A stretch of DNA of 39,033 nt from Clostridiales bacterium DTU087 (GCA_001513495.1 LFTN01000135.1:16454-55486); one strand, 5' to 3'; counted from the stretch's first letter, positions 5,720 through 36,413 are shown. Made by a program: numbers and translations. The notes: generated by a model not told the origin, from the sequence alone.

Positions 5720-5779
5720 ACAGGTTTTCAGAGCCGGCCCTGTGTCAGAGGTAATTGCAAATCTTCAAACCCAGCCATG

Positions 5780-5808
5780 TTGCATGGGTGGGTTGTCAAT
5801 GGTATAAT
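5780..5808 (+). promoter_or_regulatory. sigmaA promoter of the rpsF-ssb-rpsR operon
   Basis: TTGCAT (5780-5785), 17 bp, TATAAT (5803-5808), extended -10 TG. Confidence 0.85.
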
Positions 5809-5819
5809 TACCATGGTCA

Positions 5820-5866
5820 TCCCTGCTCCAGGTGCGTCCTGGGGCCATGTCCATAGGGAGGAGGTG
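5820..5866 (+). ncRNA. S6:S18-binding ribosomal leader (cis-regulatory RNA)
   Basis: Inner hairpin CTCCAGG/CCTGGGG (5826-5844) followed by CCA (CCR motif); outer stem TCCCT/AGGGA running into the RBS; directly upstream of rpsF. Confidence 0.75.
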
Positions 5867-5871
5867 GAGCT

Positions 5872-6162
5872 ATGGTGAGACCATACGAGATTATGCTCGT
5901 CTTGCAGCCCGGTCTTGAGGAAGAAGGCGTTGATGCTTTGTTGGAGCGCCTGATGGGTGTTGTTACCGGTGAAGGCGGCACCATCGACAATGTGGATCGA
6001 TGGGGCAAGAGACGGACGGCTTACGAGCTTCAGGGGTTCACCGAAGGCTTCTATGTGGTGATTGATTTTCAAGCGGAGCCCGCTACAGCCAGTGAGTTGG
6101 AGCGGATCGTGAAGCTCTCCGATGAGATCATTCGCCATCTGCTGGTACGCAGAGACAATTAA
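5872..6162 (+). CDS. rpsF: 30S ribosomal protein S6
   Basis: RPYEIMLVL...WGKRRTAYEL...IIRHLLVR; strong RBS; synteny with ssb-rpsR. Confidence 0.97.
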   Translation: MVRPYEIMLVLQPGLEEEGVDALLERLMGVVTGEGGTIDNVDRWGKRRTAYELQGFTEGFYVVIDFQAEPATASELERIVKLSDEIIRHLLVRRDN

Positions 6163-6220
6163 GCGGCAACTCACGGCTAAGTTACAGCTCCGTTCCGCAC
6201 AGCGATAAGGAGGAGCATCT

Positions 6221-6619
6221 ATGCTTAATCGAGTGATATTGATCGGCCGCTTGACAGCCGACCCCGAACTGCGATATACCCAAAACGGCACCGCGGTTAC
6301 CAATTTTCGCTTAGCCGTAGAACGAGGATATACCAATCAGAGCGGACAAAGGGAAGTTGACTTTATCCCCATAGTTGTTTGGGATAAGCAAGCAGAAACC
6401 TGTGCCAATTACCTAAACAAGGGACGTCTGGTAGCAGTAGATGGCCGGCTGCAGGTACGTTCCTATGATGCGCAGGACGGGTCCCGGCGGTGGGTGACCG
6501 AAGTAGTTGCCCAGGATGTGAGATTCCTCGATTGGGGAAGACAATCTGATCAAGAAAGTGACAATCCGCAGGGAACAGACCAGTCGGATGATTTCTTTAT
6601 TGAGGATGTGCCCTTCTGA
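6221..6619 (+). CDS. ssb: Single-stranded DNA-binding protein
   Basis: MLNRVILIGRLTADPELRYT; acidic tail ending EDVPF. Confidence 0.97.
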   Translation: MLNRVILIGRLTADPELRYTQNGTAVTNFRLAVERGYTNQSGQREVDFIPIVVWDKQAETCANYLNKGRLVAVDGRLQVRSYDAQDGSRRWVTEVVAQDVRFLDWGRQSDQESDNPQGTDQSDDFFIEDVPF

Positions 6620-6634
6620 TAAGGAGTGAGACAT

Positions 6635-6871
6635 GTGGTTAGGGATCGAAGAAGGGGGCGTAGAGGCAGGCGCAGAGTCTGCAGCTTCTGCGTTGACAAG
6701 GTAGAACATGTCGATTACAAAGAAGCTGGCCGGTTGCGCCGTTATCTTTCGGAGCGAGGAAAGATATTGCCTCGGCGGATCAACGGTAACTGTGCACGCC
6801 ATCAGAGGCAGTTGACTGTTGCCATTAAGCGTGCCCGTCAGGTTGCACTGCTTCCATACACAGCAGAGTAA
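6635..6871 (+). CDS. rpsR: 30S ribosomal protein S18 (Zn-binding C+ form)
   Basis: CSFC...DYK...[20 protein letters not shown]...AIKRAR; GTG start 8 nt after AAGGAG. Confidence 0.97.
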
Positions 6872-6895
6872 CCACAACTGAATTCTAGACATAGC

Positions 6896-6928
6896 AAAGG
6901 GTTAACTGCTTGGCGGTTAGCCCTTTTT
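6896..6928 (+). terminator. Rho-independent terminator after rpsR
   Basis: AAAGGGTTAACTGC-TTG-GCGGTTAGCCCTTT stem (with G-U pairs) ending in a T run. Confidence 0.8.
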
Positions 6929-6999
6929 CACACATTTTGAAAGACTGTACAGCGGCGGAACCGGGTGTGGGGACAAATTTTTGCCAGGAGGTGTGAGGC

Positions 7000-7317
7000 A
7001 TGCCTATGCCGAAATCCGATATCGGCATTGCCCGCAATATCAAGACCATTGAATGGCTGAAGGCCGAGTTGGTCTCCGGGGTAGCCACGTTTTTCCGGGG
7101 TCTAGTCAGAAACACAGAAGATATGATGATTGATGGCTTAGCCAATATAGTGATCACGTGCTTCATCCTGGGAAACCGGCTGGGATTTAGTTTTTCTAGA
7201 TTGGATGTAAAGATCGAGAACAAGATCAAAGCCAATATTGAGCAAGATCACGAAATAGAGCAGTGGTACGGTGATTTTTCTGCTCTGCTGCGGTACCTAC
7301 AAGACAATAAGAGGTGA
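7000..7317 (+). CDS. MazG-like family protein
   Basis: IARNIKTIEWLKAEL...EIEQWYGD pattern; position between rpsR and yybS as in many clostridia; AGGAGGT RBS. Confidence 0.75.
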   Translation: MPMPKSDIGIARNIKTIEWLKAELVSGVATFFRGLVRNTEDMMIDGLANIVITCFILGNRLGFSFSRLDVKIENKIKANIEQDHEIEQWYGDFSALLRYLQDNKR

Positions 7318-8297: not shown

Positions 8298-8747
8298 ATG
8301 GAGGTTATCTTGAAGCAGGATGTAAAGAGCCTTGGAAAACAGGGCGATAGGGTAAAGGTGGCAGAGGGCTATGCCCGCAATTTCCTAATTCCCAGAGGGC
8401 TGGCAGTGGAAGCCACCAAGGGCAACATTAAAAGCCTGCAGCATCAGAAGAAATTGGACCAGGAGCGGGCATCCCGGGAAAGGGCAGAAGCTGAGAAGAT
8501 GAAAGCTGTCCTGGATGATCTGGACCTGGTGATCCGGGCCCGCTCGGGAGAAGGCGGCCGGCTGTTTGGTTCAGTGACCAGCGGCGATTTAGCGGACGCA
8601 ATCAAAAAAGCGGCTGGTATCGAAGTTGACAAACGGAAGCTGGAATTGGAAGAGCCCATTAAAGCCGTAGGCAGTTACAGTGTTAAGGTAAAGCTCCTGC
8701 CTGGGGTGACAGCTAATCTAGGTGTTAAGGTAGAATCGTCTGAGTAG
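8298..8747 (+). CDS. rplI: 50S ribosomal protein L9
   Basis: MEVILKQDVKSLGKQG...VAEGYARNFLIP, GRLFGSVT. Confidence 0.97.
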   Translation: MEVILKQDVKSLGKQGDRVKVAEGYARNFLIPRGLAVEATKGNIKSLQHQKKLDQERASRERAEAEKMKAVLDDLDLVIRARSGEGGRLFGSVTSGDLADAIKKAAGIEVDKRKLELEEPIKAVGSYSVKVKLLPGVTANLGVKVESSE

Positions 8748-8791: not shown

Positions 8792-10804
8792 ATGAAGAGC
8801 ATAATCCGAAAACTCCTGACGAAGAAAGAGCACAAATTAGGCATGAAGCTTTCCGGCGAAGAGCAGCTGAAACGGCAAGTTACAGCGGTTTACGGCCTTT
8901 TGGCTAATTTGATGGGGTCTGACAAACTGGTGATGAAGGCCGGAAAGCTGGATGCTCTTCACCTGATGCGCTCTGATCGTTTGGAGGAGCGGGTATTGGC
9001 TCTGAAGAAAATCGTGCTGGAGGATCCCACCCTGAGCAATGTGCCTAAACCGGAGGAGATCCCAGAGGAACTGCGGGAGATTGAAGATGTGTTGGCTGAC
9101 CTCTTGGCTCGCCGCACAGTCCAGGAAGCCCTGGAAAAGAAAATGGCAGAGCGGATGGAGGAGCGGCAGGAAGAATATCTCCGGGAGCTCCGGATGGAGA
9201 TATTGAGGGAAGAAAGGGGCCCAGACAATCCCTTTACCCTGAAGAAGTACGCGGAACTGGAGAAATTGGAGCAAAGGAAGCTATCAACATCCATCAATGA
9301 GTATCTAAGGCCCACGGATCTGACAGCGGTAGTGGGCCAGGAGAATGCCATTAAGGCCTTGTTTGCCAAGATCGCCTCACCCTATCCGCAGCATGTGATT
9401 CTATATGGGCCCCCTGGTGTTGGGAAAACCACTGTGGCCCGGCTGATACTGGAAGCTGCCAAGCAGCTGCCGTATACGCCCTTTGAATCTGACGCCGAAT
9501 TTGTGGAGGTGGACGGTACAACCCTGAGATGGGATCCCCGGGATGTGACTAACCCTTTGCTGGGGTCGGTTCATGATCCTATCTATCAAGGAGCCAAGCG
9601 GGATCTGGCCGAGGGGGCAGTCCCAGAACCAAAGCTGGGTTTAGTTACCGAGGCCCATGGCGGAATCCTATTCATCGATGAGATCGGCGAGCTTGATCTC
9701 ATGCTTCAGAATAAGCTGCTCAAGGTGTTGGAGGATAAGCGGGTCAAGTTTGACTCTTCCTACTACGATCCTTGTGATCCCAATGTGCCGAAGTATATAA
9801 GGAAGCTGTTCGAAGAAGGGGCGCCGGCAGATTTCATCTTAATCGGTGCCACAACTCGGGACCCGTCGGAAATCAACCCGGCCTTGCGTTCCCGCTGTGC
9901 TGAGGTGTTTTTTGAGCCCCTGAGCCACAAGGATATTCAATCCATTGTGGCCAGTGCTGCGGAGCGGCTGGGGGCCGAGCTGGAAGCGGGGGTCGCTGAA
10001 TTGATCAGCGAGTACACAGTTGAGGGACGGAAGGCAGCCAGCATTTTAGGTGACTGCTACGGTGTCGCTCTCCAGCGGTGTGGAGCCGGCGGGGACCCGG
10101 CGGGGCCGGTGACGATTACCAGGTCGGACCTGGAAGGTGTGATTCAGACCAGTCGGCTGGTACCCTATGTGACGGTCCAGGCCGATGAAAGCGCGGAAGT
10201 GGGCAAGGTCTTGGGACTGGGAGTCAGCGGCTTTCTCGGTTCTGTCCTCGAGATCGAAGCTGTTGCCTTTGCTGCCAAGGCCCAGAGTAAAGGTACGTTA
10301 AGGTTCAACGAAACCGCTGGTTCCATGGCCAAGGATTCGGTCTTCAATGCAGCCTCAGTGGTGCGGCTGCTCACCGATAAAGAGATCTCCGATTATGACC
10401 TCCATGTAAATGTGGTGGGGGGCGGCAAGATTGATGGCCCTTCGGCAGGACTCGCTGTGACCTTGGCCTTGATTTCAGCCATTGAGGGCATTCCTCTGCG
10501 CCAAGATGTTGCTGTTACCGGCGAGGTCTCACTTCAGGGCAAGATCAAGCCGGTGGGCGGCATTCAAGAAAAGATTTATGGAGCTAAGCAAGCCCAGGTA
10601 AAGCGGGTGCTGGTGCCCATGGAGAATGAGCGGGAGATCCCCAAGGGGCTCAGCGGTATCGAAGTCATTCCCGTGGGCTGCGTTCAAGATGCCTTGGCGC
10701 TGATCTCGGCATCGGAGACATCGACGCCTGTCTCAGCCTCCACCTTTGATGCCAAGACAGTCCAGTGGCCGGCTAAGCATAATCGTCACCGCCTAACCAG
10801 CTAA
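8792..10804 (+). CDS. lonC: Lon-family ATP-dependent protease (LonC/LonB-like)
   Basis: Walker A GPPGVGKT, Walker B LFIDEIGE, protease Ser motif IDGPSAG and Lys in VGGIQEKI; follows rplI. Confidence 0.88.
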   Translation: MKSIIRKLLTKKEHKLGMKLSGEEQLKRQVTAVYGLLANLMGSDKLVMKAGKLDALHLMRSDRLEERVLALKKIVLEDPTLSNVPKPEEIPEELREIEDVLADLLARRTVQEALEKKMAERMEERQEEYLRELRMEILREERGPDNPFTLKKYAELEKLEQRKLSTSINEYLRPTDLTAVVGQENAIKALFAKIASPYPQHVILYGPPGVGKTTVARLILEAAKQLPYTPFESDAEFVEVDGTTLRWDPRDVTNPLLGSVHDPIYQGAKRDLAEGAVPEPKLGLVTEAHGGILFIDEIGELDLMLQNKLLKVLEDKRVKFDSSYYDPCDPNVPKYIRKLFEEGAPADFILIGATTRDPSEINPALRSRCAEVFFEPLSHKDIQSIVASAAERLGAELEAGVAELISEYTVEGRKAASILGDCYGVALQRCGAGGDPAGPVTITRSDLEGVIQTSRLVPYVTVQADESAEVGKVLGLGVSGFLGSVLEIEAVAFAAKAQSKGTLRFNETAGSMAKDSVFNAASVVRLLTDKEISDYDLHVNVVGGGKIDGPSAGLAVTLALISAIEGIPLRQDVAVTGEVSLQGKIKPVGGIQEKIYGAKQAQVKRVLVPMENEREIPKGLSGIEVIPVGCVQDALALISASETSTPVSASTFDAKTVQWPAKHNRHRLTS

Positions 10805-10849: not shown

Positions 10850-11740
10850 GTGGTGGCATACGGTTCTGAGAGACGGTTAACGGGCAGTACAGGTGTGCTG
10901 GGCGTCATCGGCGATCCCATCGCCCACAGCCTGTCGCCGGCGATGCAGAATGCCGCTCTGGAAGCCTTGGCACTGGATTATATCTACGTTCCTTTTCATG
11001 TCAATCCTCTGCATGTTGGGGAAGCCATAGCGGGGATGAAGGCCTTTGGGATTAGGGGGCTCAATGTCACCATCCCCCACAAGGTGGCTGTCATTGATCA
11101 TATAGATGAGATTGAACCAGTGGCAGGCCTCATCGGGGCTGTCAATACCATCAGCAATGAGGGCGGCCGGCTTGTGGGCTACAATACCGACGGCAGGGGT
11201 TTCTTGCAGTCCCTTAAGGAAGAAGCAGATCGCGAACCTCCGGGCCAGCGGATAACCATCATTGGGGCAGGGGGGTCTGCCCGGGCCATCGGGTTTCAGC
11301 TGGCTGTTTCCCAAGTTGAGCGCTTGGTCATAGCTAACCGGACCAGGGGCAAGGCCTTGGCCCTGGCAGCTGAGATAGCCGATAAGACCAAGTGCTCCAC
11401 TGTAGGCATTGGCCTTCACCAATTGGAATCATACCTGCCGGCCACCGATATTCTCATTAATACGACTTCCCTTGGTATGCATCCCCAGGTAGATACTATG
11501 CCACCGGTGGAGTGCGGGAAGCTGCCGTCCTCCGCCCTAGTCTGCGATATAGTCTACAATCCTTCCGAAACACTGCTGCTAAGAAAAGCTGCTGCCTGCG
11601 GCTTACCTACATTGCCCGGTTTGGGAATGCTGGTTTACCAAGGGGCAGCAGCACTGGAAATCTGGCTGCAGGTTAAGCCTCCCATCGATGTGATGAAGGC
11701 TGTTGTCAAGCAAGAACTGGAAAACTGCAGCCAGAATTAA
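10850..11740 (+). CDS. aroE: Shikimate dehydrogenase
   Basis: GDPIAHSLSPAMQN, GLNVTIPHK, GAVNT, GYNTDG, GAGGSARA, GLGMLVYQG. Confidence 0.95.
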   Translation: MVAYGSERRLTGSTGVLGVIGDPIAHSLSPAMQNAALEALALDYIYVPFHVNPLHVGEAIAGMKAFGIRGLNVTIPHKVAVIDHIDEIEPVAGLIGAVNTISNEGGRLVGYNTDGRGFLQSLKEEADREPPGQRITIIGAGGSARAIGFQLAVSQVERLVIANRTRGKALALAAEIADKTKCSTVGIGLHQLESYLPATDILINTTSLGMHPQVDTMPPVECGKLPSSALVCDIVYNPSETLLLRKAAACGLPTLPGLGMLVYQGAAALEIWLQVKPPIDVMKAVVKQELENCSQN

Positions 11741-11747
11741 GCCAGCA

Positions 11748-12509
11748 CTAGACGATGGGCGGCTCACCTTTGATGGCTCTGACCAGCTCCATGGCTGCAG
11801 CTACCTTTGGCTTGGGGCCGCTGACTACAAGGCCCACACTGCCCTCGCTGCCTCCTACGCCGCCGCCAGAGACCTGTACTGCTTCGACGCCGCAGAGAAT
11901 GTCCAGGGCCTCTACTTCGGTGATGATCGCAGCACCGACAACGGGAATCATGCCGCAGGCCATGCCCATGGTATCATCAAAAGCATGAATGCCCAGCTGC
12001 CGGACGGCTGCCTCCACTGATGGGATCAGTTTCTCCCGGGACACCGGGATGATCAGATGGCTGCCCCGGGCATACAGTGTACCGAGTGCCGATCCAATGG
12101 TGCCTCCATTGGGAGCTCCCACTAGGACGCCGGCCATGCCCGATGGATCCACAGCATTGGCCCCTTTGATAAACACATCTTTACCGGTAAAATCTTGGAG
12201 AATGTCAAGCCACGGGCGGGAGCTTCTCTCGCCGTTTTCAAAACATACAGGCGTCAGGCGGGTTTCACTGGATGTAGCTGTAAAGACGCCTTGTGTAATA
12301 ACGCCGGCGGTGTAACGCATCTTCTCCACCGGCTCCTGAAGGACTTCCTCGGCGACGTAGGCATTGGTAATGCCGGTGGCTATGATCAGCTTGCCTTGTT
12401 TTCGAGCTGCTTGTACTTGCGGCAAGGCCGCAACTGCTTTGCCGATTAACCGTTTGCCTTCAGAGACAGTCAAAGAGATGAGAGCCTTTCCTGTGCCGTT
12501 GTCCGTCAT
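11748..12509 (-). CDS. Hypothetical protein, possibly NagB/RpiA/CoA-transferase-like fold
   Basis: 253-aa ORF with AGGAG RBS; Gly-rich motifs ATGITNAY, DVFIKGANAVD, GGTIG, GGGVGGSEG; the fold is an inference. Confidence 0.75.
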   Translation of the reverse strand: MTDNGTGKALISLTVSEGKRLIGKAVAALPQVQAARKQGKLIIATGITNAYVAEEVLQEPVEKMRYTAGVITQGVFTATSSETRLTPVCFENGERSSRPWLDILQDFTGKDVFIKGANAVDPSGMAGVLVGAPNGGTIGSALGTLYARGSHLIIPVSREKLIPSVEAAVRQLGIHAFDDTMGMACGMIPVVGAAIITEVEALDILCGVEAVQVSGGGVGGSEGSVGLVVSGPKPKVAAAMELVRAIKGEPPIV

Positions 12510-14215: not shown

Positions 14216-14521
14216 ATGTTAATGCGGCGAATAATCAGGATTCTGGCACCAAGGGTGAGGTTGTGGGGGCACCTTCTGTTATTGGCTGCATCGCTGGGGG
14301 TTGTGGGCTGGGCGTGGCTGTTTTATAAAAATGTCTGGGATGCTGCTATTCCAGCGTTTGGTTCACCAGAGCCTTATTTGGAATCCCTGCGCTGGCTGTT
14401 GGCCAGGTACCTCTTGGCCGGCGGAGGCCTGTTGGTCGCGTGGCTGTCGGGCTTAGCCATGGTCCGCTCCAGCACGCCGGGCCGGGTGCATGGGAGCGGC
14501 CGGCAGCGGCAGATGGGATAG
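14216..14521 (+). CDS. Small membrane protein with two predicted transmembrane helices
   Basis: 101-aa ORF with AAAGGA RBS, two hydrophobic stretches, fills the gap between ddl and ABC-F. Confidence 0.6.
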   Translation: MLMRRIIRILAPRVRLWGHLLLLAASLGVVGWAWLFYKNVWDAAIPAFGSPEPYLESLRWLLARYLLAGGGLLVAWLSGLAMVRSSTPGRVHGSGRQRQMG

Positions 14522-14539: not shown

Positions 14540-16450
14540 TTGAGCCTTGTTCAACTGGATGGAATCACAAAACACTACGGAGACAGCCTGGTCTTTGAGC
14601 AAGTTACAGCAGCCATCGAGCGGGGTGATAAGATCGGTCTGGTGGGTCCCAATGGGGCAGGCAAGACTACACTCTTGGCGGTGATAGTCGAAGAGACCCT
14701 GCCGGACAGCGGCGTGCTCCGCATGGCCGGTCAATGCCGCATCGGTTATTTGCCCCAGCGGCCGGAAAGCACCTGGGACATGACCTTGAGGCACCTGCTC
14801 CTGGGGGAGTTCAGTGAGATCCGGGCCATGGCTGATGCCCTGCGTCAGTTGGAGAAAGAGATGGCCTCTCCGGAGGTCTATGAAGATCAGGGGCTTCTAG
14901 ATCAGGTCATGACCCGCTACGGCCAGCTGCAGGAGGAGTTCCGGCTGGCAGGCGGCTATTCATACGAAGTGAAGATGAAGCAGGTCATCTACGGCTTGGG
15001 ATTTACCGAAGGGGATCTTGACCGGTCTGTTGGGGAGTTTAGCGGCGGTGAGAGGGTGCGGGCAGAACTTGCCCGGATACTTTTGGCGGAACCAGATCTG
15101 CTGCTCTTAGATGAACCCACTAATCACCTGGATATGGACGCGACAGAGTGGCTGGAGGGCTACCTGCGGGGATTAAAGCAGGCGGTGGTGCTGGTTTCCC
15201 ATGACCGCTACTTCTTAGATCGAATCTGTACCCGCATTTGGGAATTGGACAACCATCAATTGTTTCAATACAAGGGCAATTTCACCCATTATGTGGAGCT
15301 GCGGCAGGCGAGGCTTGCCCGCCAGGAGGCCGAGTATCAAGCAGCTGCAGCAGAAGCACAGCGTCTGCAGGCATATATCGATCGGTACCGGGCCGGCAAC
15401 CGGGCTAAGCAGGCCCAGAGCCGGGAGAAGCGGTTGGCCAGGTTAAAGCCTGTGTCTAGGCCGTCTAGGACTGGAGCCATGGATTTGGAGCTGTCCTTTG
15501 ACAGCCGGACAGTCAAGCAGGTGCTGCTTACAGAGGAACTGGCCATCGGATATGATGAGAAGCCGCTGGTAAGCGGGTTAGATCTATCTATCCTGCGGGG
15601 AGAACGCTGGGGGATCATCGGCCCCAATGGTGTAGGCAAGAGTACTTTGCTAAAAGTCCTCACAGAAGAGGAGCCTCCTCTAGAGGGCTCATTCGCGTGG
15701 GGGGACGGCGTTTCCATTGGATACTTTCGTCAAGGGTTGGATGACCTGGAGGACAGCAGCACTATTTTAGATGAGGTGTTGGAAGTCCGCAATCTGCCGG
15801 TAGGCGAAATGCGCAGCTTCTTGGCTCGCTTCCTGTTTACAGGGGAGCGGGTTTTCAGCCAGATTGGCAGTCTAAGCGGCGGAGAGCGGTGCCGGGTTGC
15901 ACTGGCCAAGCTGATCCTGGCGCGACCTAATGTCTTGCTATTGGATGAGCCGACTAATCACTTGGACGTGGTCAGCAGAGAAGCTTTGGAGAATGCCTTG
16001 GCAGATTTTCCAGGTACGCTGCTTTTGGTGACCCACGACCGGTATCTGCTGGACAAGCTGGTGACCAACCTCTTGGTGTTGAAATCGGGCGGGTATGAGA
16101 CCTTCGAAGGGACTTACAGTTCCTATCGGGAGTGGAAGCGGCAAAGGGAAGAGGCTGCTGCGGCGGCTGCAGCTGTTGCTGGTCCAGCCCAGGGGAAGAG
16201 GGCCCCTATAAGAGAGCCCAGCAGGGATGTGCAGAAGGAGTTGGCCCAATTAGAAGCAACCATCACCCTGGCTGAGCGGGAACTAGAGCAATTGACCCAG
16301 GAGATGGCGGATCCAGATATCTACTTAGATGGTGAAGCCATCAGATCGGTATCGCTGCGGCACCGGGAGATATCCCAGAATTTGGAACAGCTCTATCAAA
16401 GGTGGGAAGGGCTCATCCTGGAGCTTGAGCAGGATTCCAGACCGCTCTAG
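14540..16450 (+). CDS. ABC-F family ATP-binding protein (YdiF/Uup-like)
   Basis: Two ABC cassettes (GPNGAGKT / SGGE / LDEPTNHLD, twice), helical linker, C-terminal coiled coil, no TM segments. Confidence 0.92.
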   Translation: MSLVQLDGITKHYGDSLVFEQVTAAIERGDKIGLVGPNGAGKTTLLAVIVEETLPDSGVLRMAGQCRIGYLPQRPESTWDMTLRHLLLGEFSEIRAMADALRQLEKEMASPEVYEDQGLLDQVMTRYGQLQEEFRLAGGYSYEVKMKQVIYGLGFTEGDLDRSVGEFSGGERVRAELARILLAEPDLLLLDEPTNHLDMDATEWLEGYLRGLKQAVVLVSHDRYFLDRICTRIWELDNHQLFQYKGNFTHYVELRQARLARQEAEYQAAAAEAQRLQAYIDRYRAGNRAKQAQSREKRLARLKPVSRPSRTGAMDLELSFDSRTVKQVLLTEELAIGYDEKPLVSGLDLSILRGERWGIIGPNGVGKSTLLKVLTEEEPPLEGSFAWGDGVSIGYFRQGLDDLEDSSTILDEVLEVRNLPVGEMRSFLARFLFTGERVFSQIGSLSGGERCRVALAKLILARPNVLLLDEPTNHLDVVSREALENALADFPGTLLLVTHDRYLLDKLVTNLLVLKSGGYETFEGTYSSYREWKRQREEAAAAAAAVAGPAQGKRAPIREPSRDVQKELAQLEATITLAERELEQLTQEMADPDIYLDGEAIRSVSLRHREISQNLEQLYQRWEGLILELEQDSRPL

Positions 16451-16517: not shown

Positions 16518-16551
16518 GAATGCTGGCAAGTAGTTGCCGGGAGGGATATGG

Positions 16552-17472
16552 ATGGCAGCCGATAATACCAGGGCTTGGCAGATAGAAAACCCTTGGCGGT
16601 TGATTGCTGTGCCTCGGGAACTACTTACAGTCTATCATCGGGTTATAGGTAACGAAGCTGTCCTTCTGTGGCTCCATCTGCAGTGCTTCGGAGAGAACAA
16701 CCTGTTGTCGGATATAGACACTCTGGTGGCTGAGCTCCAGGCCCGTACCGGGTTCTCCCCGGAGACAGTTATGCTGGCTCTCCACCGCTTGGAACAGTAC
16801 GAGCTGGTGGAGATGAAGGAGCGGGTGATCAGACTGAGCCCGCCCCTGACTGCTGAGCAGTTTGCTGCCCGCTTTGCCGGTGAACTGGCTGCCGGCATTG
16901 AAGAAGGGCAAGTTGATGCAGAATTGGCATATGGAGCCCTGGAGGCAGCGGAAGGAGAAGAGCAGGCCTCAGCCGCCGATGCCCTCCCCGAGACCTTGGA
17001 TCTCGACTTGTCCAGTGCAGTGGGGGCTGCCGAGGAAGAGTCGGAGGTTGCAGAAGAGCAGGCCATCTTGGATAAGGAGGCTTTCTCTTCCCCCGAGGCT
17101 GACTTCCAGGCCGTGCTTGATCTCTATCATAAGCGTATCGGCATGATGGGCCCAAAACAGCGGGACAAGCTCCGCTTCTGGGTAGAGGAGTCGGGGATGA
17201 GTGCAGAAGTAGTAGCGGCAGCCATTGACATCACAGCCCGCAAGGCGGAAAATCCACGCATCCAGTACCTAGAAGGGGTTTTGCGCAACTGGTATAATGA
17301 CGGTGTACGGACCTTCGAGGAGGCACTGAAGAAGTATCCAGAGATTGCCGGCGATAGTGAGAGTGCCTCTGCAAGCTATGAAGGAGCCCCCAATGCGGGA
17401 GCATACACTGAAGCTGATCAAGAGCTAATTCAAAAATGGAAGGAGCTTTACCCCGATGAGTATAGCAGCTAA
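16552..17472 (+). CDS. DnaD/DnaB(Bacillus)-domain replication protein
   Basis: N-terminal LLTVYHRVIGNEAVLLWLHL resembling the Bacillus DnaB/DnaD winged-helix region, acidic linker, C-terminal YLEGVLRNWYNDG matching the YxxxIxxxW DnaD-domain motif; ATG 6 nt after GGAGGG. Confidence 0.8.
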   Translation: MAADNTRAWQIENPWRLIAVPRELLTVYHRVIGNEAVLLWLHLQCFGENNLLSDIDTLVAELQARTGFSPETVMLALHRLEQYELVEMKERVIRLSPPLTAEQFAARFAGELAAGIEEGQVDAELAYGALEAAEGEEQASAADALPETLDLDLSSAVGAAEEESEVAEEQAILDKEAFSSPEADFQAVLDLYHKRIGMMGPKQRDKLRFWVEESGMSAEVVAAAIDITARKAENPRIQYLEGVLRNWYNDGVRTFEEALKKYPEIAGDSESASASYEGAPNAGAYTEADQELIQKWKELYPDEYSS

Positions 17473-18856
17473 GCAGCTGGATGACCGGGAGGGTAAAGTC
17501 CCATTTGTACCCATGGATCTCGATGCCGAGCGGCGGGTACTGGGCATCCTGATCAAATACCCAGATAAAATTGATTTGGTCATAGATAAGCTGAAGGCCG
17601 CCCACTTCTACGATCGGGTTCACCGGATGATCTTTCAGGTCATCTTGGAGCTGTACCAGTCTAAAGGCAGGATCTCGTATACGCAGGTATATGCCAGGCT
17701 GCGGAAGGAGCAAGAGATTGATACCTTAGAAGAGGTATTGGTGGGGATTACCGAGTCCTTTGCCAGCCAAGCAGAACTGGATCCCAGTGTGGAAGTGCTG
17801 CTGGAAAAGGATGCCAAGCGCCAGATTCTCAACGCTGCCCAGAAGATCGAACAGATGGTCCTTCTGGAAACGGAGGACAGTATCGAGGGCTATCAGGCTA
17901 GGGCCCAAGAACTGATATTTGCTGCCACCAATGCTGCAGCCAGTCCCGAGGATGATGCCAAGGACCTCTTGGAGGTCCTAAATAAGTGCTATGTCAATCT
18001 GCTGCAGAGGCGGGAAGGTAAGTCTACCCACGGATTGTCAGTGCGCTATCCGTCCATCGATGCCTTTACAACCGGCTTTAAGAAAAAGGACCTGATTATC
18101 TTAGCAGCCCGTCCCAGCATGGGGAAGACTTCCTTGGCCCTGAACTTCGCGGTAAATGTGGCCAAGCGCAATATACCGGTGCTCATCTTCAGTCTGGAGA
18201 TGGATGATGAGCAGATCGGGGATCGGTTGGTTCTCAGCGAGTTGTTCCGTACCAGGGGCAGGGGGCCGGAAGAGGTTACAGCCTTTGATTATGCAACTAA
18301 GATGACCGATACCCAATTTGCTGTAACCCAATCCATCTTTAACGATCTCTACAAACTGCCCATTCAAATCGTTGACAGGCGGGGCCTGACAGTAGCAGAG
18401 ATCAGGGCTAAAGCCAGGAAAGCGAAGGCAGAACAGCCGGACCTGGGATTGATCATTGTGGACTATCTGCAGTTGATCAAACCTCCAGCAGATACCAGGA
18501 AGAACTGGTCACTGGTGGTAGGTGACATTGTCAGGGAGCTGAGGGATCTCGCAGGCGAGCTGGATCTGCCTCTCATCCTCCTATCCCAGCTGAATCGGGG
18601 GGTAGAGAGCCGGGAGGATAAACGGCCCATGATGTCGGATCTCAGGGACAGCGGCAACATCGAGGAGTTTGCCGACGTGATTATGTTCTTGTACAGGGAG
18701 GATTACTACTACCCTGAACAAGCTGCTGAGAAGGGGCTGGAAGGCGCCACTGAAGTGATCTTCGCTAAACAGCGAAAAGGGCCCACCGGCAAAGTCAAGC
18801 TGCGTTACCTTAAGGAATACACTCGCTTCATCGAGGAAAGCCTTCGGGAGGAATAA
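17456..18856 (+). CDS. dnaB: Replicative DNA helicase (DnaB family), divergent
   Basis: H1 AARPSMGKT, H1a FSLEM, H2 IIVDYLQL, H3 LSQLNRGVESR, H4 DLRDSGNIE, AKQRKGPTG; N-terminal DnaB domain. Confidence 0.93.
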   Translation: MSIAAKQLDDREGKVPFVPMDLDAERRVLGILIKYPDKIDLVIDKLKAAHFYDRVHRMIFQVILELYQSKGRISYTQVYARLRKEQEIDTLEEVLVGITESFASQAELDPSVEVLLEKDAKRQILNAAQKIEQMVLLETEDSIEGYQARAQELIFAATNAAASPEDDAKDLLEVLNKCYVNLLQRREGKSTHGLSVRYPSIDAFTTGFKKKDLIILAARPSMGKTSLALNFAVNVAKRNIPVLIFSLEMDDEQIGDRLVLSELFRTRGRGPEEVTAFDYATKMTDTQFAVTQSIFNDLYKLPIQIVDRRGLTVAEIRAKARKAKAEQPDLGLIIVDYLQLIKPPADTRKNWSLVVGDIVRELRDLAGELDLPLILLSQLNRGVESREDKRPMMSDLRDSGNIEEFADVIMFLYREDYYYPEQAAEKGLEGATEVIFAKQRKGPTGKVKLRYLKEYTRFIEESLREE

Positions 18857-18867
18857 CAGGCAGGAGT

Positions 18868-19089
18868 ATGGATATGGAGCTGTTCGAAGAACTGGAGCGG
18901 ATCAAGATTCGCTTTGTGGCGGCATATGACAAGCTGGTGAAACAAGGGGTTATATCAGAAAGGGATTACCAAGAGATTCTTGAAATTATCGATGATCTAG
19001 ACAGCTACAGCCTGGAGGAGCTGCAGGAGCGCCTGGGGCGTTTCCGCCAAGTGCTGCCTCTCCAGGATGAAGGACTTACAGAGGAGTAA
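18868..19089 (+). CDS. Small acidic helical hypothetical protein
   Basis: 73-aa ORF 11 nt after the dnaB stop, AGGAG RBS, Glu/Asp/Leu-rich. Confidence 0.7.
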   Translation: MDMELFEELERIKIRFVAAYDKLVKQGVISERDYQEILEIIDDLDSYSLEELQERLGRFRQVLPLQDEGLTEE

Positions 19090-19145: not shown

Positions 19146-20159
19146 TTGGGATTGGTTCCGGCAGCCCGGCCCCAGAAGCGCCGCCTATGGCCTTATTTGA
19201 TTGCGGCGGTGGTGCTTCTTGGTTTAGGTGTATATCTGACAGCAGCAAAGACAGTAACCATCATTGTAGATAACGAAGTACAGCAAGTGGTGACAACTTG
19301 GACCGGCAGCGTAGATGATGTTCTCGCCAAGGCTGGTGTTGCCCTGCTGCCTGAGGACCGTGTAGAACCGGCTGTCAATGAGCGGGTAACCCGGGGCATG
19401 GAGATTCGCATCACCCGGAGCTTCCCGGTTACCCTAGTGGTAGGCGGTTCCGAGAAGACAGCGCGGTTCATCGGCGGCTCTGTAAAGGACCTTCTGGAGC
19501 AGCAGGGTGTAGAGCTGGGGGAGATGGATCGGGTTATTCCTGATCTGACACAGGAAGTGGCTAGCTCGCAAACCGTGGAGGTTATCAGAGTCACTGTGGA
19601 ACAGATAACCGTGGAGGAAGACCTTCCCTATGCAAGTAGGGAGTGGGCAGAGCCCACGTTGGAGAAGGGCAAAACCAAGGTTGTGCAGCAAGGCCAATTA
19701 GGTGTCCAGGAAAAGGTCTATGAAGTGACCTGCGAAAACGGCCGGGAAGTAAACCGGGAACTGCTCCTGACCCGGGTAGTAAGAGAGCCTAAAGACGAGA
19801 TAATAGGAATAGGGACCAGGGAGCCGTCAAAAAGCGTCATCACCACCTCCCGGGGGCCGATCCAGTACAAAGAAGTGAAGGAAATGGTTGCCACGGCGTA
19901 TTATCCTGGGCCGGAGAGTACCGGCAAGTGGGCAGATGGGATCACTGCCACAGGGGTGAAGGCGGGTTATGGAATTGCAGCCGTAGACCCCAAAGTCATA
20001 CCTTTGGGAAGCCGCCTGTACGTCCCGGGCTACGGGCACGCTTTAGCCGCTGATGTGGGCGGGGCTATTAAGGGGAATCGCATTGATTTGTGCTTTGACA
20101 CCTACAATGAGGCTATCCAATATGGGCGGCGGACGGTAAAGGTGTATATTTTGGAGTAG
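19146..20159 (+). CDS. yabE: YabE-like cell wall protein (DUF348 repeats, G5, 3D domain)
   Basis: N-terminal TM, ubiquitin-like repeats, G5 (VVQQGQLG), 3D domain ATAY...AVDPKVIPLGS...AADVGGAIKGNRIDL; upstream of rsmA. Confidence 0.88.
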   Translation: MGLVPAARPQKRRLWPYLIAAVVLLGLGVYLTAAKTVTIIVDNEVQQVVTTWTGSVDDVLAKAGVALLPEDRVEPAVNERVTRGMEIRITRSFPVTLVVGGSEKTARFIGGSVKDLLEQQGVELGEMDRVIPDLTQEVASSQTVEVIRVTVEQITVEEDLPYASREWAEPTLEKGKTKVVQQGQLGVQEKVYEVTCENGREVNRELLLTRVVREPKDEIIGIGTREPSKSVITTSRGPIQYKEVKEMVATAYYPGPESTGKWADGITATGVKAGYGIAAVDPKVIPLGSRLYVPGYGHALAADVGGAIKGNRIDLCFDTYNEAIQYGRRTVKVYILE

Positions 20160-20161
20160 AC

Positions 20162-20184
20162 GGGCAGGTTACCTGCCCCTTTTT
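20162..20184 (+). terminator. Rho-independent terminator after yabE
   Basis: GGGCAGG-TTA-CCTGCCC then CTTTTT. Confidence 0.7.
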
Positions 20185-20208: not shown

Positions 20209-21102
20209 TTGGAGCCAAATGCTGTAGATACTGCCTTGGCTGCGCCTACCGCGGTTCGCCGCCTGGCTGCCAAGCACGGGTTTACCTTCCGCAGATCCTT
20301 GGGACAGAACTTCTTGATCGATGGCAACATCTTGAGGAAAATCATCCAGTCGGCGGCAATCACCAAAGCAGATACAGTTATAGAAGTTGGTGCCGGTATT
20401 GGGACTCTCACCCGGGCTTTGGGGAGTACTGCCGGGCGGGTACTGTCACTGGAGGTTGATAGGCGGCTGGAGCCTATTCTCCAGGAGACCGTTGGCGATT
20501 ATGATAATGTGGAGATTATCTGGGAGGATGCCTTGAAGCTGGACTGGCCCAGCTTTTGGAAGCGCCAAGGGTTGTCCCGGGCGAAGTTCGTTGCCAATCT
20601 GCCGTACTACATTACATCGCCCCTCTTGCTCAACATCTTCTGTGAATGCCCTTTCCTGGAGAGCATCACGGTAATGGTGCAAAGGGAGGTAGGAGAGCGA
20701 TTTACTGCCCAGCCTGGAACCAAGACCTATGGAACACTTACTGTCTTGGCAGGCTACTATAGTGAAGTAGAGATCTGCCATATAGTGCCTCCCACGGTTT
20801 TCATGCCTCCTCCAGATGTGGAATCTGCAGTAGTGAAGTTTACACTCCGGCCCTACGAATTGGAAGCCGTCGATCCGGAGTTGCTTTGGACAACTGTCAA
20901 GGCTGCCTTCAGCCAGAGGAGAAAAACCCTGGCCAATTCCCTTGCCTCAAGCCTCAAGCCTTCTCTTTCCAAGGCAGCAGTCAATGATATCCTGCAAGCT
21001 TGTGGTATTTCCCCTGAGCAGCGGGCAGAGACTTTAACTGTCGCGGATTTTGTTATACTGTCCAACCACTTGGCTGCCGTGCTTCCCAGGGAGGGACGCT
21101 GA
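20209..21102 (+). CDS. rsmA: 16S rRNA adenine dimethyltransferase RsmA/KsgA
   Basis: LGQNFLID, IEVGAGIGTLT, VANLPYYITSP, FSQRRKTL. Confidence 0.96.
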   Translation: MEPNAVDTALAAPTAVRRLAAKHGFTFRRSLGQNFLIDGNILRKIIQSAAITKADTVIEVGAGIGTLTRALGSTAGRVLSLEVDRRLEPILQETVGDYDNVEIIWEDALKLDWPSFWKRQGLSRAKFVANLPYYITSPLLLNIFCECPFLESITVMVQREVGERFTAQPGTKTYGTLTVLAGYYSEVEICHIVPPTVFMPPPDVESAVVKFTLRPYELEAVDPELLWTTVKAAFSQRRKTLANSLASSLKPSLSKAAVNDILQACGISPEQRAETLTVADFVILSNHLAAVLPREGR

Positions 21103-26507: not shown

Positions 26508-27500
26508 ATGGGTTCCCAGTTGAGGGAAGCAGCTGTTGGATCAGAGAACGCTAACCGTATGTATACAGAAGAGGAAGATCAAAAAATCTTAGCTAAGTGG
26601 TGGAACAAAAAACTCAGACCAGAACTGGCGAAGGAACTAGGCAGAAGCGAAGCCGCCCTTGCCCAGCGGTTCTATGCCATTTTGAAAAAGAAGGGTATAG
26701 AGCCCAAGTCATATAGGGCTAAGATGAAGGAGGAAGCAGGCAAACGGCACTTGCAGCCCACCGCAGCCGGCCGGAGCTGGACTAGGGATGAAGATATCAT
26801 CCTGTGGCGAGGGGCAAGAGCCGGTGACAGCTTCTCTGATATCGCCGGCCGGCTTGCCGGCCGCACAGCCGAGGAGTGCCGGGAGCGCTATGAAGCCCTG
26901 CTTCAGGCAAACGCCAGTGTAGATGTCCCTGTGCAGCCTACGGACGCTCTTGGAGCTGCGGCTGATCAGAGGAGAGAAGTGGGGGGCTCTGCGGCTGATA
27001 TTGAACATACAGTCCAGGAATCCAGCGAAAACGGCCAGCCAGAGTATCCGAAGGATGGGCAAAGCGAAGACTCAGAGGATTTCTTGGATGTCCTCAGGCG
27101 ATTCCCACAGCAAGCTGAAGCGTTAACTCACCGCATGGATGGCATCGAGAATGATATGCAGTACATCAAAGGCAGCCTGCAGTTCAGCCTGGAGCACTTG
27201 GCCCAGGGGCTTCAGAATGTCGTCAATTATCTTGTCGGGCAGGAGCAGGATTTTACGGCCTTTGAGAAAATCCGCCAAGAGAATCAAGCTCTCCGCAGTC
27301 AGTTGACAGAGCTGCGGCAGCGGATGGAAAACGAAAAAAAGGAATTGAGAAAAGTCTACAACGAGCTGGAGTTCTGGCTGGGTGAATTCTTGGAAATGCG
27401 CAAGATCGAGAAGGTAGCCAATCTTGGAGAGTTGATTCCCAAACTCAAGTACTCCTATGACAAGTTTGGAGTGCTCCTGCAGATTGAAAAGGAAGCCTAG
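26508..27500 (+). CDS. Putative transcription regulator with two Myb/SANT-like repeats and a C-terminal coiled coil (RsfA-like)
   Basis: YTEEEDQKIL...LAKELGRSEAALAQRF and WTRDEDIIL...IAGRLAGRTAEECRERY; AAGGAGG RBS. Confidence 0.7.
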   Translation: MGSQLREAAVGSENANRMYTEEEDQKILAKWWNKKLRPELAKELGRSEAALAQRFYAILKKKGIEPKSYRAKMKEEAGKRHLQPTAAGRSWTRDEDIILWRGARAGDSFSDIAGRLAGRTAEECRERYEALLQANASVDVPVQPTDALGAAADQRREVGGSAADIEHTVQESSENGQPEYPKDGQSEDSEDFLDVLRRFPQQAEALTHRMDGIENDMQYIKGSLQFSLEHLAQGLQNVVNYLVGQEQDFTAFEKIRQENQALRSQLTELRQRMENEKKELRKVYNELEFWLGEFLEMRKIEKVANLGELIPKLKYSYDKFGVLLQIEKEA

Positions 27501-36005: not shown

Positions 36006-36413
36006 ATGGGATATATGCTTAAGGCACTGGCTGTCGCGGGAGCCGCCGCGCTCTTTGCGCTTAGGGTCAACCGCATCCTGGCGGCTGGATTTGGCGAAGT
36101 GGCTGTGAGGCTGCTGATTCCCGTAGTAGAAGAGGGGCTCAAAACGGGGTCGGCTCTTCTCTTTGGCTTGTCGGTGCCGGTTGTCCACATCGGCTTCGGC
36201 CTCTATGAAGCTGGATACGACTTGCTTGCCAATCCAGGTGTGGGCCGTACCAGACGCTGGCTGGCGGCTTTCTTGGCCATTATTGGGCATGGGATTTTTG
36301 GCTGGTTGACCTGGTGGCTGCTGTGGAGTAAGGGGAGCGCCATCCTGGCCCTTGCGCTGGCGTGTACAGTGCACTGCTTGTGGAACGCGACAGTACTAGG
36401 TATAAAGCGGTGA
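36006..36413 (+). CDS. Small membrane protein with PrsW-type glutamic intramembrane protease motifs
   Basis: EExxK (VVEEGLK), FxxxE (FGLYE), H (IGHGIF), HxxxN (HCLWN) in a hydrophobic 135-aa ORF. Confidence 0.65.
   Translation: MGYMLKALAVAGAAALFALRVNRILAAGFGEVAVRLLIPVVEEGLKTGSALLFGLSVPVVHIGFGLYEAGYDLLANPGVGRTRRWLAAFLAIIGHGIFGWLTWWLLWSKGSAILALALACTVHCLWNATVLGIKR

Follow-up and report, generated by a model that had tools for sequence, protein, structure and literature searches.

In Bacillus subtilis the gene dnaD does not lie beside the helicase gene, while phage replication modules set initiator and helicase functions close together, lambda pairing its O and P proteins with the host DnaB and SPP1 bringing an origin-binding protein, a small loader and the helicase G40P. 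Getting a DnaB-family ring onto single-stranded DNA (ssDNA) is the job of DnaI/DnaC and of DciA, all of which use the LH-DH module (PMC9912922). In the B. subtilis pathway, as set out in part of PMC13326638, the tail of DnaD binds DnaB and the tail of DnaB binds DnaI, an earlier two-hybrid study having tied the C-terminal domain (CTD) and C-terminal tail (CTT) of DnaB to the CTD of the helicase; the CTT of DnaD is described in PMC10201434 as basic and aromatic and as binding ssDNA. The survey of Brezellec et al. 2016 (PMC5109545) places dna[CI] throughout the Firmicutes it covered except for five species with dciA, and 'Limnochorda' does not occur in its supplementary table. Replacement of one loader by a non-homologous one is documented in the Vibrionaceae, as are the viral loaders VdhL1/2, and VdhL homologues adjoin dnaD-like genes in phages (PMC11087808). 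Here we analyse a stretch of 39,033 nucleotides (nt) from Clostridiales bacterium DTU087 (GCA_001513495.1 LFTN01000135.1:16454-55486), referred to throughout as the window, in which three consecutive genes encode a DnaD-type replication adaptor, a DnaB-family replicative helicase and a small acidic protein. This trio is the chromosomal operon of the replicative helicase in Limnochordia-type Bacillota, passed on by vertical descent. Whether it would also constitute a pathway that runs from DnaA through the DnaD-type adaptor to the helicase without an AAA+ loader, and with a new helicase-bound cofactor, is in our judgement evenly poised; on computational grounds the whole would be a variant form of helicase loading of the Firmicute type that includes a new family of small proteins. 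No paper on helicase loading in Limnochordia or on DnaI-less Bacillota was found in the full-text literature, subscription journals lying outside the scope of that search.

The three genes and the parts of the helicase are as follows, with positions counted from the first letter of the window and lengths in amino acids (aa).

16552..17472, plus strand: DnaD-type replication adaptor gene, 306 aa from ATG 16552.
16534-17472, plus strand: longest DnaD-type open reading frame (ORF), first TTG at 16534, 312 aa.
17456..17472, plus strand: overlap of the DnaD-type stop and the helicase start, 17 nt, read from the sequence.
17456..18856, plus strand: DnaB-family replicative helicase gene, 466 aa, stop codon 18854-18856.
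17510-17800, plus strand: helicase N domain, PF00772, 7.4e-18.
18032-18832, plus strand: helicase C domain, PF03796, 5.6e-81.
18122-18130, plus strand: helicase Walker A GKT (G223-K224-T225), invariant in the alignment.
18868..19089, plus strand: small acidic three-helix protein gene, 73 aa, after a gap of 11 nt from the helicase stop.

Residues of the DnaD-type protein are numbered in the 312-aa frame that starts at TTG 16534; the actual gene likely extends over 16552-17472, because a GGAGGG box (16540-16545) stands 6 nt before ATG 16552 and this ATG is the start column in most of the aligned homologues. An earlier, sequence-only reading of this DNA had reported a 17-nt overlap of the DnaD-domain gene with the helicase start and a 73-aa acidic helical ORF 11 nt past the helicase stop, and both are confirmed, the first at 17456-17472 and the second with an isoelectric point (pI) of 4.29 and three predicted helices. 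An alternative start of the small ORF at ATG 18874, 7 nt after AGGAG, yields 71 aa and is more likely the better one. That the DnaD-type and helicase genes overlap implies that their translation would be coupled. Measured between longest ORFs in 67 related loci, an overlap of 17 nt is seen in 33, one of 14 nt in 14 and one of 11 nt in 2; in the other 18 it is longer, probably because the ORF start has been over-extended there.

The case for an inherited operon rests first on how consistently the three genes travel together. Our class sample comprised 41 genomes from 13 families, most of them metagenome-assembled genomes (MAGs). The DnaD-type gene stands directly upstream of the helicase gene in 39 of the 40 relatives, or 40 of the 41 genomes overall, and the small gene gives exactly one match per genome, always on the helicase strand and at most 112 nt past the helicase match (41/41). 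A pattern scan of species-representative genomes returned 77 loci, a set that overlaps the 41 genomes, so that the two counts are not independent. By hidden Markov models of the alignments the DnaD-type gene is followed by the helicase in 67 of these loci. Five of the 67 end at a contig edge, and the 62 with sequence beyond the helicase all have the small gene; the remainder are a short contig bearing the DnaD-type gene alone (locus L096) and nine loci with a DnaD-like gene and no helicase adjoining, from Clostridia, Tissierellales, Lentibacillus, Virgibacillus, Erysipelotrichaceae and Clostridium. The closest loci belong to MAGs named Limnochordia bacterium, Limnochordales bacterium and Bacillota bacterium. 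When the phylum was sampled evenly with 81 genomes, six from other classes proved to have helicases 57-63% identical to that of the window, with the trio in 6/6. The three-gene order, whose conservation had been put forward as a check, is thus class-wide and extends into neighbouring classes.

The exception is genome G030 of family f10 (G, C, L and f being our handles for genomes, contigs, loci and families), where lonC-aroE-ddl leads directly to the helicase, no DnaD-type gene lies upstream of it, and helicase and small gene are kept. A hidden DnaD-type gene upstream of that helicase was considered and rejected, the ORFs there being aroE and ddl and hhalign giving a probability of 0.8% against the DnaD-type alignment. 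The same genome carries, at L118:3657-5910 (C1), a 437-aa protein with two DnaB_2 domains adjoining a DnaI-like gene, in the manner of the B. subtilis dnaB-dnaI pair. Family f10 (G030; L035 on C2) thus offers itself as a contrast to the rest of the class. In G030, as in L031 (f7), the yabE-like gene found downstream of the trio in the window is not adjacent, but the helicase is again followed by the small gene.

The second support is that these genes are sole copies in a genome where no described loader could be found. The window's genome, in 233 contigs and 97.3% complete, has one DnaB-family helicase, the other DnaB_C match being RadA (TIGR00416, 586 bits), and the DnaD-type gene is its sole DnaB_2 gene; with a single such helicase, it follows that this one serves the chromosome and that the DnaD-type protein is the only one of its kind in the cell. 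DnaA and PriA are both present. Matches to the IstB/DnaC/DnaI ATPase (PF01695) in this genome are DnaA and PhoH only, with no DnaI/DnaC-type loader, and DciA (PF05258) has no match there and none over the cut-off in the 41 class genomes. The usual place of dciA is between recF and gyrB (PMC5109545, in part); this slot was inspected in the dnaA-dnaN-recF-gyrB region of the window's genome and a DciA there was rejected, the ORF being an 89-aa RemA-like gene (PF04025, 8.2e-10, L038:8068-8337, G000:C219). The search of the genome for further dnaB, dnaI/dnaC and dciA genes that the sequence-only reading had called for thus returned one helicase and neither type of loader. With a profile (A4) built from the class's own DnaI-like proteins, no DnaI/DnaC-type loader came up in the window's family (12 genomes, two of them 100% complete), the matches being only DnaA-sized frames, IS21-type IstB and P-loop fragments; no DnaI-like gene was found in the single-contig genomes G022 and G033 of the class sample, and in the neighbouring classes the profile met only DnaA-sized frames in 4/5 genomes. 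The sensitivity of these searches is adequate, because they recover DnaA (1e-9 to 1e-10) as well as DnaI-like genes in families f2, f7, f10 and f11.

A chromosomal DnaI-like gene of ~260-350 aa does occur in about 10 of the 41 class genomes, namely G012 and G013 (f2), G018, G023, G027, G034 and G037 (f7), G030 (f10), and G031 and G040 (f11). Five of these genes are confirmed by Pfam and lie in housekeeping contexts; the others are probable, having similar scores and frame sizes, those in f2 and f7 resting also on a second DnaB_2 match alongside. Two further matches were rejected as chromosomal loaders: the IstB match on G007 C106, which adjoins a gene with a Mu-type transposase domain, and the IstB-like match on G038 C21 (L121), which adjoins a phage Rep_O gene. 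Genome G038 also has a second DnaB-type helicase (L131, G038:C163), 37% identical to that of the window, which groups with other Bacillota helicases and not with the clade; the Rep_O/IstB-like contig and this second helicase are probably a prophage replication module. In all four DnaI-bearing families the DnaD-type gene is reduced, being 223-263 aa long and missing the extended linker in f7 and f11, lacking the tail in f2 and having no upstream copy in f10, against 255-335+ aa in most DnaI-less families. Such reduction in genomes with DnaI fits a division of labour; because the genomes are related, the trend is no statistical test.

The DnaD-type protein itself divides into the following parts.

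16615..16836, plus strand: N-terminal winged-helix domain of DnaD N-terminal domain (DDBH1) type, aa 28-101; predicted-model confidence (pLDDT) of the block 71-95.
16963..17046, plus strand: disordered acidic linker, aa 144-171, pLDDT <50.
17050..17349, plus strand: DDBH2 / DnaB_2 helical domain, aa 173-272, by Pfam and by fold match to 2zc2_A.
17266-17292, plus strand: YxxxIxxxW-type motif YLEGVLRNW, aa 245-253, V replacing I.
17419..17469, plus strand: C-terminal tail, acidic and conserved, containing a short helix at 296-305; aa 296-312, ...KWKELYPDEYSS.

Its DnaB_2 domain (PF07261, aa 197-266) scores 4.1e-15 and 55.7 bits against a cut-off of 22, and TIGR01446 DnaD_dom scores 54.2 bits against 24.95. 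The predicted model (pLDDT 75) aligns in VIA-align with Z 11.6 to 2zc2, a DnaD-like CTD (root-mean-square deviation 1.6 over 74 residues), Z 11.2 to the Geobacillus primosomal DnaB 5wtn, of which 5wtn_A aligns across both domains, Z 10.4 to 9a5c_B (DnaD) and 9.4 to 2i5u. Its N domain, built of helices over residues 28-88 and a beta hairpin at 92-101 with G39 and W46 invariant in the alignment, reaches Z 8.3 to the DnaD N-terminal domain 2vn2_A, at 29% identity over 90 aligned residues, and Z 8.0 to 2v79_A; many generic winged-helix regulators also reach Z 6.5-8.6, so the winged-helix fold alone is not specific. In Foldseek the whole model has a best E of 2.2e-3, with none <=0.001, weak values for a flexible two-domain model, and DnaD/DnaB entries fill the first four ranks, which VIA-align bears out. 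A long helix follows the winged-helix domain. The region aa 105-190 has 24 D+E against 2 K+R; the linker differs in length between families, and its alignment columns are variable and gapped. In the motif, named YxxxIxxxW in PMC13326638 (in part), L250, R251 and W253 are invariant and Y245 nearly so across 20 aligned sequences. Beyond the DDBH2 bundle the model has a disordered stretch and then the C-terminal helix, where the conserved tail motif KWKELYPDEY has W302, K303 and E304 nearly invariant across the 13 families, the tail being missing from both f2 sequences aligned. Residues 268-312 have a pI of 4.05, with 10 D+E against 2 K+R, and we propose that this tail is a putative docking peptide. 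A DDBH2 domain over the curated cut-off, a DDBH1-type winged helix and the YxxxIxxxW motif are all three present, and the protein is of DnaD architecture; a tail like that of B. subtilis DnaD, which is basic and aromatic and binds ssDNA, is not present.

The small ORF belongs to no Pfam or NCBIfam family, and it is a real gene, being conserved, single-copy and next to the helicase in 41/41 genomes. The protein is acidic (20 D+E against 9 K+R) and is modelled as three helices with pLDDT 81.5. Its best match among sequence profiles of the Protein Data Bank (PDB) is a designed protein at E 0.0016 and its only ESM Atlas match an unnamed 64-aa cluster with a score of 0.76, both uninformative, and Foldseek against the PDB gives no fold match (best E 2.3). 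Out of 1.84 billion proteins, only 134 cluster representatives match a profile of the protein, 32 of them at E <=1e-10; the matches are mostly of 40-110 aa, and ~30 longer proteins, matched in several short stretches, look like low-complexity noise. The small protein represents an undescribed family, and we propose that it may be a helicase-bound cofactor. Of the two neighbours whose complex with the helicase the sequence-only reading wished to see predicted, the small protein was run, each partner entering as a 20-row alignment, and the outcome is weak support for binding: the score is 0.56 (runs 0.56, 0.56 and 0.60), against 0.00 for the best of 3 controls, with >=97% of contacts shared between runs and a partner pLDDT >=71. 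In calibration the pass mark was reached by 116/157 solved complexes and 2/215 mismatched pairs, yet scores <=0.60 account for only 18/157 solved complexes and for both passing mismatches. With the 41/41 adjacency taken as prior, binding of the small protein to the helicase would be somewhat more probable than its absence.

How these parts might work together is inferred throughout, from an observed base of operon identity, sole copies, gene adjacency and a family without DnaI/DnaC or DciA. DnaA would open oriC and PriA would mark stalled forks; the DnaD-type protein would be recruited, like B. subtilis DnaD, via its winged-helix N domain and DDBH2 domain, and would itself bring the helicase in place of a handover to DnaB(Bsu) and DnaI, its acidic C-terminal tail being the likely helicase contact. 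The small protein would ride on the helicase, either holding it loadable, with the ring open or not yet assembled, or freeing it afterwards, and the overlapping genes would supply the partners together. The likeness to B. subtilis DnaD and primosomal DnaB lies in the winged-helix N domain, the DDBH2 domain with its YxxxIxxxW motif and the flexible C-terminal tail, with a probable role downstream of DnaA and PriA as for B. subtilis DnaD. Unlike B. subtilis dnaD, however, the DnaD-type gene overlaps the helicase gene, its product has a long acidic linker and an acidic conserved tail, and the window's genome, though it has DnaA, whose domain I is the binding site of DnaD in B. subtilis, offers neither DnaB(Bsu) nor DnaI for a handover. 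The small protein, for its part, has no sequence or fold likeness to DnaI/DnaC or DciA in the searches run. A bolder version has the small protein as a new loader or 'operator', neither AAA+ nor DciA, which together with the DnaD-type tail took over loading in Limnochordia and their neighbours, the helicase co-evolving and DnaI becoming dispensable and being lost in most families; we hold this takeover to be doubtful.

Several points weigh against a DnaD-type and small-protein route to loading. The small and DnaD-type genes occur in the DnaI-bearing families f2, f7 and f11, and the small gene alone in f10, about 10/41 genomes in all, so the trio is not simply exclusive with DnaI, contrary to what would be expected of a replacement loader; G030 retains helicase and small gene without an upstream DnaD-type gene. 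The tail is acidic, where that of B. subtilis DnaD is basic and aromatic and binds ssDNA (PMC10201434, in part), so that the analogy is loose. By the prediction tool's own calibration a pass of 0.56 is wrong more often than right unless the prior is good, a non-AAA+ loader may be encoded elsewhere in the genome, every functional step is reasoned and most of the genomes are MAGs. The lineage-specific loader system suggested by the sequence-only reading therefore stands in part: the trio is class-wide, the family has neither DnaI nor DciA and the binding prediction is weakly favourable, but substitution for these loaders is an inference, and the small gene is also found in the genomes that have a DnaI-like gene.

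The same facts bear on the reading that survives best among the alternatives, which we regard as possible though rather unlikely: the DnaD-type protein does an ordinary DnaD job, only remodelling the origin and bridging to DnaA as in B. subtilis, the helicase self-assembles or is loaded by some other, unrecognised protein, and the small protein is a regulator, a stabiliser or otherwise non-loading, adjacency meaning co-expression. DnaB helicases that need no loader have been reported, for example in Helicobacter pylori. Coexistence of the trio with DnaI-like genes in about 10/41 genomes, which is no strict-replacement behaviour, suits an ordinary DnaD role, as do the helicase and small gene of G030 without an upstream DnaD-type gene and the weak support given by the binding prediction. 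Set against it are the class-wide overlap of DnaD-type stop and helicase start, a conserved tail that has no known partner in these genomes, the lack of a second DnaB_2 gene in the window's genome and of DnaI in the family, and, as a tendency within a set of related genomes, a DnaD-type gene that is reduced in each of the four families with DnaI. Between this and a pathway of DnaA, DnaD-type adaptor and helicase, the latter is the better reading.

Less probable again is an ancient phage or plasmid cassette of initiator and helicase, with or without the small protein, that took over the locus of the resident helicase when the clade arose and has been vertical since; this is close to the domesticated phage-type module of the sequence-only reading, which gains no direct support. 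Phage modules typically pair an initiator with a helicase and add a small loader. The trio resembles those of lambda and SPP1, and VdhL, in its gene logic, which joins to the helicase both an initiator or adaptor and a small helper that is not homologous. Viral loaders do occur in a dnaD-like gene context (PMC11087808, in part). Unlike such modules, the trio has a DnaD-type protein for which no phage relative was found and a housekeeping context, and its helicase is closer to Geobacillus than to G40P. The best PDB relatives of the helicase are Geobacillus 2vye and 2r6a (240 and 232 bits), with the Vibrio and E. coli helicases at ~230 bits and SPP1 G40P (3bgw) at 187 bits. It narrowly misses the TIGR00665 equivalog (372.3 bits, cut-off 385.25), a miss that may be counted for a mobile origin, and falls far below the phage_DnaB model TIGR03600 (347.3 bits, cut-off 498.65). 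With tblastn, 1463 phage records match the helicase, the best at 36% identity, no closer than the Bacilli (37-39%) within a range of 31-39% for two Bacilli, a Tissierellales MAG, a Clostridium MAG and an Erysipelotrichaceae MAG. None of 50,697 phage records matches the DnaD-type protein, whose alignment gives only 3 weak matches in IMG/VR, all to the C-terminal DnaD-type (DDBH2) domain only. Neither close phage relatives nor mobile-element genes in the flanks were found, and the operon lies in the ancestral rplI-lonC neighbourhood with housekeeping genes around it.

The phylogeny of the helicase with phage and host sequences that had been asked for is a maximum-likelihood tree of 28 rows, comprising 19 clade helicases, five other Bacillota, the three top phage matches fetched and the second copy of G038, with L019 and L020 left out as duplicates of the window's family. 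Monophyly of the clade helicases is supported at 100/100, and their stem is 2.38 substitutions/site long, with the other Bacillota, the phages and the G038 copy on the other side, so that the clade stands apart from both phage and host sequences; identity to the window's helicase is likewise bimodal in the 81 phylum genomes, 57-100% in the clade and then <=44%. Stem and bimodality would fit replacement by a mobile module, yet fast co-evolution after loader loss would yield the same long stem, and if the takeover took place, co-evolution with new partners would be its cause. These are the two possible explanations, and the tree, unrooted and with few outgroups chosen by convenience, decides for neither. 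Inside the clade families group as in the taxonomy, which shows vertical descent there. The helicase shares with that of Geobacillus and Bacillus (B. subtilis DnaC; 2vye, 2r6a, 4esv) its family, domain order, intact Walker A and sole copy, but differs from the Bacilli helicases in being only 37-39% identical, under the TIGR00665 cut-off and on a long separate stem. Taken together, the comparative data favour a lineage-specific loading system over a phage module. Of what the sequence-only reading had named as fatal to its proposal, a helicase grouping with vertically inherited Bacillota helicases, a normal DnaI, and neighbours that are unconserved or do not interact, nothing was found.

Next after the clade in closeness to the window's helicase (44% and 40%) are the helicase parts of fusion proteins in the Bacillota genomes G102 and G052, where the sole DnaB-family match is a primase-helicase fusion of 837-846 aa (L138:4477-6990, minus strand; L139:3648-6188, minus strand) with the domain order DnaG zinc ribbon, DNAG_N, Toprim, then the N and C domains of DnaB. 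In both genomes the fusion gene is preceded by that of a DnaB_2 protein, and in G102 by a DnaI-like gene as well.

That an ordinary DnaI lies in unassembled parts of the MAGs or is too divergent for detection is very improbable, for although the window's genome is in 233 contigs at 97.3% completeness and most relatives are MAGs, the gene was not found in 12/12 family genomes (two rated 100% complete) or in single-contig G022 and G033, and the same searches detect DnaA and the DnaI-like genes of f2, f7, f10 and f11.

The window is origin-proximal Bacillota housekeeping DNA. Its gene order runs ychF, DUF2232, rplI, lonC, aroE, ddl, ABC-F, the trio, yabE-like and ksgA, with ispE, glmU, prs, ctc, pth and mfd farther downstream by Pfam scan, and the features nearest the trio, with ORFs lacking a Pfam family, are these.

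8298-8747, plus strand: rplI, by Pfam/NCBIfam.
8792-10804, plus strand: lonC, TIGR02903, 1001.7 bits.
10850-11740, plus strand: aroE, by Pfam/NCBIfam.
14540..16450, plus strand: ABC-F ATPase gene (PF00005 x2, PF12848, PF16326), directly 5' of the DnaD-type gene.
19146-20159, plus strand: yabE-like gene (G5/DUF348/3D), by Pfam.
20162-20178, plus strand: terminator-like hairpin, by terminator scan.
20209-21102, plus strand: ksgA/rsmA, by Pfam.
5728-7235 (minus), 11748-12509 (minus), 14216-14521 (plus), 36006-36413 (plus): ORFs without a Pfam family, by Pfam/NCBIfam scans.

Among the 36 window ORFs scanned with Pfam there is no AAA+ loader and no phage gene, which bears out what the sequence-only reading had said of the trio's surroundings. 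It had also seen aroE in place of a helicase after rplI-lonC, and the order rplI-lonC then aroE holds; the helicase has not, however, been displaced from the rplI-lonC neighbourhood, since the order lonC-aroE-ddl-...-helicase recurs across the class, G030 having lonC-aroE-ddl-helicase-small. Canonical control orders are rplI-lonC-helicase (G096) and rplI-helicase (G086). The terminator scan found no terminator-like site in the 83-nt gap between the ABC-F and DnaD-type genes. An ABC-F gene also stands directly 5' of the DnaD-type gene in f1, f7 and f11 loci (e.g. L031:2152-4029; L033:6034-7899), abutting or overlapping it in f7 and f11. In most fetched loci the trio is followed by the yabE-like gene and ksgA, the exceptions being L031, L033 and L035.

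Elsewhere in the window there are six ORFs of 101-253 aa that fall in no Pfam family, 3 of them having no NCBIfam match either, and three of the six are on the minus strand between ychF and DUF2232. A 330-aa protein at 26508-27500 (plus strand) has a Myb-like DNA-binding domain (PF00249, 5e-8), which seems unusual in a bacterium, and is surrounded by genes for the spore coat and the cell wall (SipL, D-Ala-D-Ala carboxypeptidase). The GC skew of the window levels off at 11-13 kb and again at 20-22 kb.

Helicase loading without DnaC/DnaI or DciA is an open question in bacteria, and a whole class of Bacillota, with neighbouring classes, is mostly without both DnaI and DciA. At the locus a divergent helicase is tied to a DnaD-type adaptor and a small protein. 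All three proteins are small and soluble and lend themselves to testing, and the DnaI-bearing and DnaI-less families within one class offer a natural comparison. Together the three proteins may represent a third route of helicase loading.

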